A DNA stretch of 64,000 nt from Escherichia coli (lineage in GTDB: Bacteria; Pseudomonadota; Gammaproteobacteria; Enterobacterales; Enterobacteriaceae), in assembly GCF_003334335.1 (NCBI RefSeq), contig NZ_QOWQ01000023.1. One strand, written 5' to 3'. The translations under genes and the position numbers were made by a program. Numbering within the stretch: the stretch's first letter is position 1; the number at the start of each line of letters is the position of its first letter. Positions 1,813 to 43,620 of this stretch are shown piece by piece. The notes beneath the pieces were generated by a model. It ran no database searches and was not told where the DNA came from. It saw only the letters and a program-made list of their open reading frames with translations.

Positions 1813-2094
1813 ATGGCTACCCTCACCACTGGCGTGGTTCTTCTTCGCTGGCAACTTCTTAGTGCCGTAATGATGTTTCTGGCCAGCACACTCAACATCC
1901 GTTTTCGTCGGTCTGATTATGTCGGGCTTGCGGTGATCAGCAGCGGTCTGGGCGTTGTTTCCGCCTGTTGGTTCGCAATGGGGTTGCTTGGCATCACAAT
2001 GGCGGACATCACCGCTATCTGGCACAACATCGAGTCGGTGATGATAGAAGAGATGAATCAGACACCGCCACAATGGCCAATGATTTTGACCTGA
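1813..2094 (+). CDS. yjcB: small inner-membrane protein YjcB (93 aa)
   Basis: Internal ATG of ORF 1714..2094 giving MATLTTGVVLLRWQLL...; hydrophobic. Confidence 0.75.
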   Translation: MATLTTGVVLLRWQLLSAVMMFLASTLNIRFRRSDYVGLAVISSGLGVVSACWFAMGLLGITMADITAIWHNIESVMIEEMNQTPPQWPMILT

Positions 2095-2100
2095 TACGTA

Positions 2101-2129
2101 GAAGCCTCCATAACGGAGGCTTCTTTTTT
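2101..2129 (+). terminator. intrinsic terminator after yjcB
   Basis: GAAGCCTCC-ATAAC-GGAGGCTTC stem-loop followed by TTTTTT. Confidence 0.8.
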
Positions 2130-2192
2130 ATGGCTGGCAGATGCTTTAATCATCCACCTTAAAACAATATAACCTATTGTTTTAATGACAAA

Positions 2193-2729
2193 TCAGAACG
2201 GAATGTCATCATCAAAGTCCATCGGCGGCTCGTTAGACGGCGCTGCCGGAGCGGACTGCTGCGGGCGAGACTGCGCGCCGCCGCTGAACTGATTGCCACC
2301 CTGCGGCTGCTGAGGCTGACCCCAACCGCCCTGCGGCTGACCACCACCGATATTGCCACCTGCCGGAGCGCCACCACCCTGACGACCACCCAGCATCTGC
2401 ATGGTGCCGCCAACGTTCACCACGACTTCTGTGGTGTAGCGATCCTGACCGGATTGATCGGTCCATTTACGGGTACGCAGCTGACCTTCGATATAAACCT
2501 GAGAACCTTTACGCAGATATTCGCTCGCCACTTCTGCCAGTTTGCCGAACAGCACAACGCGGTGCCATTCAGTCTGTTCTTTCATCTCGCCGGTCGCTTT
2601 ATCACGCCAGGATTCGGAAGTAGCCAGCGTAATGTTGGCAACTGCGCCACCATTTGGCATGTAGCGTACTTCCGGGTCCTGACCCAGATTACCAACGAGA
2701 ATAACCTTGTTTACGCCTCTGCTGGCCAT
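2193..2729 (-). CDS. ssb: single-stranded DNA-binding protein SSB (178 aa)
   Basis: [28 protein letters not shown]... with Gly/Gln-rich tail ending DDDIPF; ATG at rc(2727..2729). Confidence 0.95.
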
Positions 2730-2879
2730 GTTCGTGTCTCCTGAAAAAAATCGTTCTGAATAAGTGTAAACGCGCGATTGTACCATTACCAATAGCGCTT
2801 TTACTATGTTGTGACCTCGGTTCCGGGAAACAAACCTGGCCAGACATTGTTACACAACACTCCGGGTAATGCATTCCAA

Positions 2880-2899
2880 TACTGTATATTCATTCAGGT
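2880..2899. promoter_or_regulatory. LexA (SOS) box shared by divergent ssb and uvrA promoters
   Basis: TACTGTATATTCATTCAGGT fits CTGT-N8-ACAG. Confidence 0.85.
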
Positions 2900-2982
2900 C
2901 AATTTGTGTCATAATTAACCGTTTGTGATCGCCGGTAGCACCATGCCACCGGGCAAAAAAGCGTTTAATCCGGGAAAGGTGA

Positions 2983-5805
2983 ATGGATAAGATCGAAGTT
3001 CGGGGCGCCCGCACCCATAATCTCAAAAACATCAACCTCGTTATCCCCCGCGACAAGCTCATTGTCGTGACCGGGCTTTCGGGTTCTGGCAAATCCTCGC
3101 TCGCTTTCGACACCTTATATGCCGAAGGGCAGCGCCGTTACGTTGAATCCCTTTCCGCCTACGCGCGGCAGTTTCTGTCACTGATGGAAAAGCCGGACGT
3201 CGATCATATTGAGGGGCTTTCTCCTGCCATCTCAATTGAGCAGAAATCGACGTCTCATAACCCGCGTTCTACGGTGGGGACAATCACCGAAATCCACGAC
3301 TATTTGCGTTTGTTATTCGCCCGCGTTGGCGAGCCGCGCTGTCCGGACCACGACGTCCCGCTGGCGGCGCAAACCGTCAGCCAGATGGTGGATAACGTGC
3401 TGTCGCAGCCGGAAGGCAAGCGTCTGATGCTACTCGCGCCAATCATTAAAGAGCGCAAAGGCGAACACACCAAAACGCTGGAGAACCTGGCAAGCCAGGG
3501 CTACATCCGTGCTCGTATTGATGGCGAAGTCTGCGATCTTTCCGATCCGCCAAAACTGGAACTGCAAAAGAAACATACCATTGAAGTGGTGGTTGATCGC
3601 TTCAAGGTGCGTGACGATCTTACCCAACGTCTTGCCGAGTCATTTGAAACCGCGCTGGAGCTTTCCGGTGGTACCGCGGTAGTGGCGGATATGGACGACC
3701 CGAAAGCGGAAGAGCTGCTGTTCTCCGCCAACTTCGCCTGCCCAATTTGCGGCTACAGTATGCGTGAACTGGAGCCGCGACTGTTTTCGTTTAACAACCC
3801 GGCGGGGGCCTGCCCGACCTGCGACGGCCTTGGCGTACAGCAATATTTCGATCCTGATCGAGTGATCCAGAATCCGGAACTGTCGCTGGCTGGTGGTGCG
3901 ATCCGTGGCTGGGATCGCCGCAACTTCTATTATTTCCAGATGCTGAAATCGCTGGCAGATCACTATAAGTTCGACGTCGAAGCGCCGTGGGGCAGCCTGA
4001 GCGCGAACGTGCATAAAGTGGTGTTGTACGGTTCTGGCAAAGAAAACATTGAATTCAAATACATGAACGATCGTGGCGATACCTCCATTCGTCGTCATCC
4101 GTTCGAAGGCGTGCTGCATAATATGGAGCGCCGCTATAAAGAGACGGAATCCAGCGCGGTACGCGAAGAATTAGCCAAGTTTATCAGTAATCGTCCGTGC
4201 GCCAGCTGCGAAGGGACGCGTCTGCGTCGGGAAGCGCGCCACGTGTATGTCGAGAATACGCCGCTGCCTGCTATCTCCGACATGAGCATTGGTCATGCGA
4301 TGGAATTCTTCAACAATCTCAAACTCGCAGGTCAGCGGGCGAAGATTGCAGAAAAAATCCTTAAAGAGATCGGCGATCGTCTGAAATTCCTCGTTAACGT
4401 CGGCCTGAATTACCTGACGCTTTCCCGCTCGGCAGAAACGCTTTCTGGCGGTGAAGCACAGCGTATCCGTCTGGCGAGCCAGATTGGTGCGGGCCTGGTT
4501 GGCGTTATGTACGTGCTGGACGAGCCGTCTATCGGCCTGCACCAGCGTGATAACGAGCGCCTGTTGGGTACGCTTATCCATCTGCGCGATCTCGGTAATA
4601 CCGTGATTGTGGTGGAGCACGACGAAGACGCAATTCGCGCCGCTGACCATGTGATCGACATTGGCCCGGGCGCAGGTGTTCACGGCGGTGAAGTGGTCGC
4701 AGAAGGTCCGCTGGAAGCGATTATGGCGGTGCCGGAGTCGTTGACCGGGCAGTACATGAGCGGCAAACGCAAGATTGAAGTGCCGAAGAAACGCGTTCCG
4801 GCGAATCCGGAAAAAGTGCTGAAGCTGACAGGCGCACGCGGCAACAACCTGAAGGACGTGACGCTGACGCTGCCGGTGGGTCTGTTTACCTGCATCACCG
4901 GGGTTTCAGGTTCCGGTAAATCGACGCTGATTAACGACACACTGTTCCCGATTGCCCAACGCCAGTTGAATGGGGCGACCATCGCCGAACCAGCACCGTA
5001 TCGCGATATTCAGGGGCTGGAGCATTTCGATAAAGTGATCGATATCGACCAAAGCCCAATTGGTCGTACTCCACGTTCTAACCCGGCGACCTATACCGGC
5101 GTGTTTACGCCTGTGCGCGAACTGTTTGCGGGCGTACCGGAATCCCGTGCGCGCGGCTATACGCCGGGACGTTTCAGCTTTAACGTTCGTGGCGGACGCT
5201 GCGAGGCCTGTCAGGGCGATGGCGTGATCAAAGTGGAGATGCACTTCCTGCCGGATATCTACGTGCCGTGCGACCAGTGCAAAGGTAAACGCTATAACCG
5301 TGAAACGCTGGAGATTAAGTACAAAGGCAAAACCATCCACGAAGTGCTGGATATGACCATCGAAGAGGCGCGTGAGTTCTTTGATGCCGTACCTGCACTG
5401 GCGCGTAAGCTGCAAACGTTGATGGACGTTGGCCTGACGTACATTCGACTGGGGCAGTCCGCAACCACCCTTTCAGGCGGTGAAGCCCAGCGCGTGAAGC
5501 TGGCGCGTGAACTGTCAAAACGCGGCACCGGGCAGACGCTGTATATTCTCGACGAGCCGACCACCGGTCTGCACTTCGCCGATATTCAGCAACTGCTCGA
5601 CGTACTGCATAAACTGCGCGATCAGGGCAACACCATTGTGGTGATTGAGCACAATCTCGACGTGATCAAAACCGCTGACTGGATTGTCGACCTGGGACCA
5701 GAAGGCGGCAGTGGTGGCGGCGAGATCCTCGTCTCCGGTACGCCAGAAACCGTCGCGGAGTGCGAAGCATCACACACGGCACGCTTCCTTAAGCCGATGC
5801 TGTAA
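2983..5805 (+). CDS. uvrA: excinuclease ABC subunit A UvrA (940 aa)
   Basis: Full-length ORF; two ABC ATPase modules ([18 protein letters not shown]) and zinc-finger cysteines. Confidence 0.97.
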
Positions 5806-43314: not shown

Positions 43315-43339
43315 GTACTACCTGCGCTAGCGCAGGCCA

Positions 43340-43620
43340 GAAGAGGCGCGTTGCCCAAGTAACGGTGTTGGAGGAGCCAGTCCTGTGATAACACCTGAGG
43401 GGGTGCATCGCCGAGGTGATTGAACGGCTGGCCACGTTCATCATCGGCTACAGGGGCTGAATCCCCTGGGTTGTCACCAGAAGCGTTCGCAGTCGGGCGT
43501 TTCGCAAGTGGTGGAGCACTTCTGGGTGAAAATAGTAGCGAAGTATCGCTCTGCGCCCACCCGTCTTCCGCTCTTCCCTTGTGCCAAGGCTGAAAATGGA
43601 TCCCCTGACACGAGGTAGTT
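43340..43620 (+). promoter_or_regulatory. lysine riboswitch (L-box) and expression platform in the lysC 5' leader
   Basis: Long structured leader with conserved AGAGGCGC...GGAGGAGCCAG...GAGGGGG...GGTGGAGCAC elements ending at the lysC RBS. Confidence 0.85.

Follow-up and report, generated by a model that had tools for sequence, protein, structure and literature searches.

A single LexA operator in the 253-bp region between ssb and uvrA (positions 2730–2982 of the window, the whole 64,000-nucleotide stretch of Escherichia coli DNA analysed here) very probably serves both the uvrA promoter and a distal ssb promoter, P1. The shared operator is already known, as the sequence-only reading of this DNA had remarked: the site is described as shared in PMC9505508 and PMC3323433 and, for Salmonella, in PMC8072944. 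It is a founding example of one repressor site for two divergent genes, and it ties nucleotide excision repair (UvrA) and the protection of single-stranded DNA (SSB) to the DNA-damage response. The additions made here are a corrected boundary of the control region, a quantitative measure of conservation (72 of 72 orthologous regions) and the apparent behaviour of the box and the uvrA -10 element as a fixed unit; their significance beyond annotation is little. The analysis itself shows which locus this is, where the box lies, how well it scores, that it is unique and conserved, and that the uvrA -10 element is likewise conserved.

The ssb–uvrA intergenic region and its LexA box

Positions 2100–3400 of the window were found to be 100% identical to E. 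coli K-12 MG1655, and all 5426 complete E. coli genomes match this segment at 90% identity or more. The RefSeq annotation of the identical MG1655 sequence places ssb (minus strand) and uvrA (plus strand) as adjacent, divergent genes, in agreement with the sequence-only reading. The main features of the locus are as follows.

2193–2729, minus strand: ssb coding sequence, single-stranded DNA-binding protein, 178 aa (from translation; RefSeq WP_000168305.1; 178 aa also in PMC9505508)
2738–2742, minus strand: ssb Shine-Dalgarno sequence AGGAG, 8 nt 5' of the ATG, read from the sequence
2880–2899, no strand assigned: LexA operator (SOS box) TACTGTATATTCATTCAGGT, with a CTG-N10-CAG core and A or T at 9 of the 10 spacer positions
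2983–5805, plus strand: uvrA coding sequence, excinuclease ABC subunit A, 940 aa (RefSeq WP_000357740.1)
19131–19739, minus strand: lexA, encoding the repressor that acts on the ssb–uvrA box (annotated in the same window)

The control region had earlier been given as 2793–2982 (190 bp), a boundary that had to be abandoned. The ssb ATG lies at 2729, and position 2792 is merely the furthest-upstream TTG of a mechanical open reading frame (2193–2792) that adds 21 residues ahead of MASRGVNKV; because ssb starts at 2729, the intergenic region spans 253 bp and not 190. The 63 bp dropped by the shorter boundary (2730–2792) hold conserved promoter-like elements proximal to ssb, and the Shine-Dalgarno columns are at least 95% conserved in the 72 orthologous intergenic regions. 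From the far edge of the box to the start of ssb the distance is 170 nt, the same as that given in PMC9505508. In an Rfam scan of 2000–3200, nothing between the two genes was assigned to an RNA family.

The 20-mer TACTGTATATTCATTCAGGT was read at exactly the positions claimed for the LexA box. Its inner part, CTGTATATTCATTCAG at 2882–2897, has one mismatch to CTGT-N8-ACAG, and the whole box has five mismatches to a perfect 20-mer palindrome. A search for the perfect palindrome TACTGTATATATATACAGTA with up to three mismatches gave no matches, being too strict for a box with five. The core pattern CTGT-N8-ACAG with one mismatch was not enriched (21 occurrences in the window against 17.8 expected from shuffles) and is too loose when used alone. 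We therefore used a position weight matrix built from 18 E. coli LexA boxes that PMC3009722 lists (Table 4), with a symmetrised score; this table excludes the uvrA/ssb box, so that the score obtained for the box is out of sample.

The matrix scan, which the sequence-only reading had suggested as a check, gave 17.1 bits for the ssb–uvrA box, within the range of the verified boxes used for training (13.1–28.3 bits). The box ranks third in the 64 kb, after the tandem operators just upstream of lexA (lexA-dinF operon), which are the top two matrix hits and provide an internal positive control: the site at 19767–19786, a training site, scores 20.8 bits and that at 19746–19765, which is not a training site, scores 18.3 bits. 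The next best site in the window reaches 10.95 bits, at 34594. Against the 18 training-site scores the ssb–uvrA box would rank 14th, and it is a genuine operator of middling strength. The claim that the region has a single box also holds, the second-best site never exceeding 6.8 bits in the 72 orthologous regions. The heterology index of the box was 9.5 with our own 18-site matrix (training range 1.8–12.2), and the published value with the standard matrix is 6.98 (PMC9505508); the training sets differ, and we do not treat this as a discrepancy.

The per-position probability of a site at 17.1 bits is 7.1e-7 under window composition and 1.4e-6 under intergenic composition, corresponding to 3.3e-4 to 6.7e-4 sites expected by chance in the 253-bp region, 0.09–0.18 per 64 kb and 6.6–13 per genome of 4.64 Mb. 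A first-order Markov simulation gave three hits in 100 windows of 64 kb. With 6–13 chance hits expected genome-wide, the score alone is no proof, and it is the position and the conservation of the box that carry the argument.

Promoters on either side of the box

A strict scan for sigma-70 promoters and terminators across 2650–3050 returned no promoter or terminator. The promoters here appear to be non-canonical, of extended -10 type, and a weighted scan was therefore used, from which the following elements were assigned.

2907–2915, plus strand: uvrA extended -10 element, TGT (2907–2909) followed by CATAAT (2910–2915), from the weighted scan and conservation
2887–2894, plus strand: weak uvrA -35 element inside the box, either TATTCA (2887–2892) with a 17-bp spacer or TTCATT (2889–2894) with a 15-bp spacer
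2897–2902, minus strand: candidate -35 element TTGACC of ssb P1, the distal, LexA-controlled promoter; overlaps the box edge by 3 bp
2873–2878, minus strand: candidate -10 element TGGAAT of ssb P1; TTGACC-18-TGGAAT scores 8.2 in the weighted scan
2846–2854, minus strand: weaker candidate ssb extended -10 element TGT-AACAAT, score 5.7
2777–2785, minus strand: candidate proximal ssb extended -10 element TGG-TACAAT, score 9.0, with TGn present, followed by G+C-rich CGCGCG
2763–2768, minus strand: candidate proximal ssb -10 hexamer TACACT, the best-scoring minus-strand promoter candidate

The box lies 7–8 bp upstream of the uvrA extended -10 element and would therefore cover the uvrA -35 element and spacer. 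That it sits on this part of the only evident uvrA promoter is well supported by the match to consensus and the conservation from which the promoter was assigned, and PMC9505508 likewise reports that the LexA box overlaps the uvrA -35. The uvrA leader also contains a 15-codon open reading frame (2943–2990) whose last 8 nt lie within uvrA. Only Escherichia and Citrobacter keep it, two of three changes being synonymous in a divergent E. coli strain; any in-frame ATG is present in the leaders of just 32 of the 72 regions, and the peptides are unrelated.

On the ssb side, the exact hexamers of P1 and of the proximal promoters are putative, having been chosen by consensus and conservation. TTGACC-18-TGGAAT is the sole ssb-side promoter candidate that spans the box; it is kept in close relatives only, and would fit the published distal, LexA-repressible P1 (PMC9505508). 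Its -35 hexamer varies among relatives (TTGACC, CTGACC, TTAACC and ATGACC), and a natural E. coli variant turns TTGACC into TTAACC. The two proximal candidates are better preserved: in TGG-TACAAT the T, A, A, A, T and TG positions are 70–100% conserved across Enterobacterales, and in TACACT the TAnACT positions are 70–100% conserved in the 72 regions. Both are likely to be LexA-independent ssb promoters. Around the weaker TGT-AACAAT candidate, GACATTGTT(A/G)CAC is conserved in Escherichia, Citrobacter and Enterobacter only. The CGCGCG that follows TGG-TACAAT (2771–2785, minus strand) resembles the discriminator type of stringently controlled, growth-rate-dependent promoters, and such a G+C-rich discriminator would fit the growth-phase dependence reported for ssb mRNA.

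Conservation of the box and its fate in split loci

In order to compare the region across species, GTDB species-representative genomes were scanned with a degenerate UvrA N-terminus pattern, giving 120 loci in each of which ssb was placed by tblastn with the SSB N-terminal domain. In 72 of these (the window included) ssb is divergent from uvrA at a distance of 161–467 bp; they comprise Enterobacterales, one Photobacterium and one Pasteurella. Each of the 72 adjacent divergent loci carries a single LexA box scoring 12.5 bits or more (median 17.3), a level to be set against the 0.8% of shuffled intergenic regions that reach 12 bits. The box lies 75–195 nt from the uvrA start, with a mode of 100–105. 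When the 72 regions were aligned, mean identity to the E. coli base was 56% over the whole intergenic region, 88% over the LexA box and 93% over TGT-CATAAT (2907–2915), and the CTG, ATAT and CAG columns of the box were at least 95% conserved.

When the alignment was anchored on the box, TGTG(T/C)CATAAT was seen on the uvrA side at an almost constant distance all the way from Escherichia to Proteus, Budvicia and Pragia. Towards ssb the information content dwindles to almost nothing a few bases away, except in the Escherichia/Citrobacter/Salmonella/Enterobacter group, which has GCATTCCAA in common; this is not conserved beyond the group. Judged from these alignments, the box and the uvrA -10 element evolve as a fixed unit and the ssb-side promoter does not, a pattern in keeping with how hard ssb induction has long been to detect.

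Within E. coli, a 30-base probe spanning the box (2870–2899) matches exactly at 28 or more of its 30 bases in 5396 of 5426 complete genomes, and 976 of about 5420 genomes have one mismatch within 2866–2920; the two one-mismatch variants sampled, at 2869 (strain M3) and 2900 (strain AH19K002), both fall outside the box. The E. coli region that differs most (91.7% identity) has an unaltered box, uvrA -10 element and proximal ssb -10. Four E. coli records labelled as plasmids carry the chromosomal ssb–uvrA region and may be mislabelled replicons or large chromosomal inserts.

Loci in which the gene pair has been parted were also found. In five Vibrio loci, two genes running in the same direction as uvrA, a qstR-like gene and galU, put about 2.1 kb between ssb and uvrA. 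These loci have a strong box (20.8–25.2 bits) 83–97 nt upstream of uvrA, and none has a site of 10 bits or more within 300 bp upstream of ssb. The separate LexA sites for both genes that PMC3323433 reports to be kept in some split Vibrionaceae were thus not seen upstream of ssb in the five split Vibrio loci sampled. In one of the five, the qstR-like open reading frame contains a site of 13.3 bits, 419 nt upstream of ssb. In Zobellella, Oceanisphaera and a metagenome-assembled genome related to them, the gene that ends 15 nt before ssb, on the ssb strand, encodes an MFS transporter; uvrA and this gene diverge across a 145-bp gap, in which a box of 13.9–15.2 bits lies at 61 nt from uvrA. The Alteromonadales and Shewanella loci sampled have the same MFS–ssb layout without a box; across the Aeromonadales, Alteromonadales and Shewanella loci examined, the transporter gene ends 15–35 nt before ssb. 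Where genes have been inserted between ssb and uvrA, the box stays with uvrA.

Regulation, rival readings and related systems

In 1982 Sancar et al. reportedly published LexA footprints and the repression of uvrA in vitro. The site at 2880–2899 has every sequence-level feature of a gammaproteobacterial LexA operator; LexA binding and induction, the LexA dependence of both genes and the existence of three ssb promoters are taken from the literature. According to PMC9505508, LexA represses only the distal of the three ssb promoters, uvrA is induced about 3.5–4-fold, and the induction of ssb by UV and gamma rays is LexA-dependent by RT-qPCR, with ssb overexpressed in an SOS-constitutive strain. 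The same paper summarises radioimmunoassays and three microarray studies that missed ssb induction, and reports that ssb mRNA is equal in wild-type and lexA3 cells during unstressed growth. In addition, the box was found upstream of the UV-induced uvrA transcript (PMC3009722), and a shared ssb/uvrA LexA site has been described across gamma-proteobacteria (PMC3323433). The earlier claim that both genes are SOS-controlled from one operator is hence upheld for the sharing of the site (PMC9505508, PMC3323433, PMC8072944) and not for its implied symmetry, as ssb is reached only via P1.

We propose that in undamaged cells a LexA dimer at 2880–2899 would cover the uvrA -35 element and spacer and block RNA polymerase, leaving a moderate basal level of uvrA, and that the same dimer would cover the spacer and the -35 edge of the back-to-back, leftward distal ssb P1. 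Upon DNA damage, RecA filaments would bring about LexA self-cleavage and so free both the uvrA promoter and ssb P1, with the proximal ssb promoters, 95–135 bp from the box, remaining out of LexA's reach throughout. The expected outcome would be a few-fold rise in uvrA and a modest rise in ssb over a high constitutive level, because the operator is middling and ssb has proximal promoters that LexA could not reach. High LexA-independent expression from these promoters would likewise account for an ssb induction that is modest and was long disputed (PMC9505508).

The weightiest alternative is that the box is in effect the operator of uvrA, its proximity to ssb being a product of gene order and LexA control of ssb being negligible or confined to a few lineages. 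The five split Vibrio loci, in which the box remains near uvrA and the 300 bp upstream of ssb hold nothing that reaches 10 bits, agree with this, as do the fixed spacing of the uvrA -10 element from the box, the lack of conservation of the P1 elements, the conservation of the proximal ssb -10 elements, the older assays and three microarray studies without ssb induction, and the equality of wild-type and lexA3 cells when unstressed. It is opposed by the LexA-dependent induction seen by RT-qPCR and the overexpression in SOS-constitutive cells (PMC9505508), by the report that some Vibrionaceae with a split pair keep a LexA site for each gene (PMC3323433), and by the Zobellella/Oceanisphaera loci, where the box is still in a divergent region, between uvrA and the MFS-transporter gene that precedes ssb. 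We consider this alternative unlikely; since the box follows uvrA, we grant it that much weight for the ssb arm. A related idea, that the operator is ancestrally and primarily that of uvrA and that SOS control of ssb is a lineage-restricted add-on, present where P1 arose against an existing box, is somewhat easier to entertain, and we put it forward tentatively. If it were true, induction of uvrA without that of ssb would be expected in many Enterobacterales that share this gene order, and in the split Vibrio loci the parting of ssb from the box would have cost nothing.

The other two alternatives concern the site itself. A chance CTG-N10-CAG match in an A+T-rich intergenic region, without operator function, would be in keeping with one-mismatch cores that are no more frequent than in shuffles and with the 6–13 chance hits expected genome-wide; it is at odds with the expectation of 3e-4 to 7e-4 in the 253-bp region, with the near-invariance of the 30-base probe over the box in 5426 E. 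coli genomes and with the experimental literature on this exact site. As all 72 orthologous regions retain the box while their flanks diverge, conservation appears to overturn the chance reading, which is in practice refuted and to which we assign a negligible probability. It is also very improbable that the conserved block is mainly the site of another regulator, such as ArcA, or promoter sequence, with its likeness to a LexA box secondary. The non-consensus right half, TTCATTCAG, is itself conserved and overlaps the weak uvrA -35 element, a hint that these bases are constrained in a second way, and the Figure 1 legend of PMC9505508 places an ArcA site in the region. The columns that do not vary, however, coincide exactly with the CTG and CAG triplets contacted by LexA and with the A/T spacer, and in lineages where the right half has changed, for example Salmonella and Enterobacter, it has come closer to the LexA consensus (TTCAAACAG, 21.6 bits); extra regulators would be compatible with LexA control and no replacement for it. 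A single LexA operator acting on uvrA and on ssb P1 thus remains the reading that we prefer.

The E. coli locus described by Brandsma et al. (Nature 305:243, 1983, and Nucleic Acids Res 13:5095, 1985, both cited in PMC9505508) is the one analysed here, and the published uvrA–ssb region has the same box and the same divergent genes, with no biological difference here. The ssb/uvrA locus of Salmonella enterica has the same gene order and one shared box with a heterology index of 6.99, and both genes count among loci that nalidixic acid upregulates (PMC8072944). The S. enterica arizonae locus that we sampled has a 247-bp region, with the box 100 nt from the start of uvrA. The Salmonella/Enterobacter box, TACTGTATATTCAAACAGGT, is nearer to consensus than that of E. 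coli (21.6 against 17.1 bits) because its right half reads ACAG and not TCAG. Other E. coli SOS operators (the lexA pair at 19746–19786, recA, sulA and umuDC) have the same CTG-N10-CAG pattern, the same repressor and the same overlap with the core promoter; the ssb–uvrA site differs from them as a single middling box for two divergent transcription units instead of one. Sinorhizobium meliloti, unlike E. coli an alphaproteobacterium, has the divergent uvrA–ssb pair in common with it, and its LexA motif differs, being a direct-repeat GAAC-type box. Its divergent uvrA–ssb promoters were reportedly studied as a jointly regulated unit by Tapias and Barbe (1999, Mol Gen Genet 262:121).

Several further observations were made in the window. 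The weak LexA-like site at 34594–34613, GTCTGAATGAATACCCAGTA, scores 10.95 bits, below every training site, and overlaps the xylE start codon at 34600; it has CTGAATGAATA in common with the ssb/uvrA box and is probably due to chance. In the convergent yjcB/ssb gap, a strong hairpin followed by a T-run (AGAAGCCTCCATAACGGAGGCTTCT TTTTT) lies after yjcB at 2100–2134. The only Rfam hits in 2000–3200 were sub-threshold Phe_leader hits at this yjcB terminator (27.7 bits against a gathering score of 55), which are due to the hairpin and T-run. The annotation also places two frameshifted pseudogenes, of a DUF2713 protein (15548–16533) and a SopA-family protein (24571–26151), and a lysine riboswitch upstream of lysC (43333–43529).
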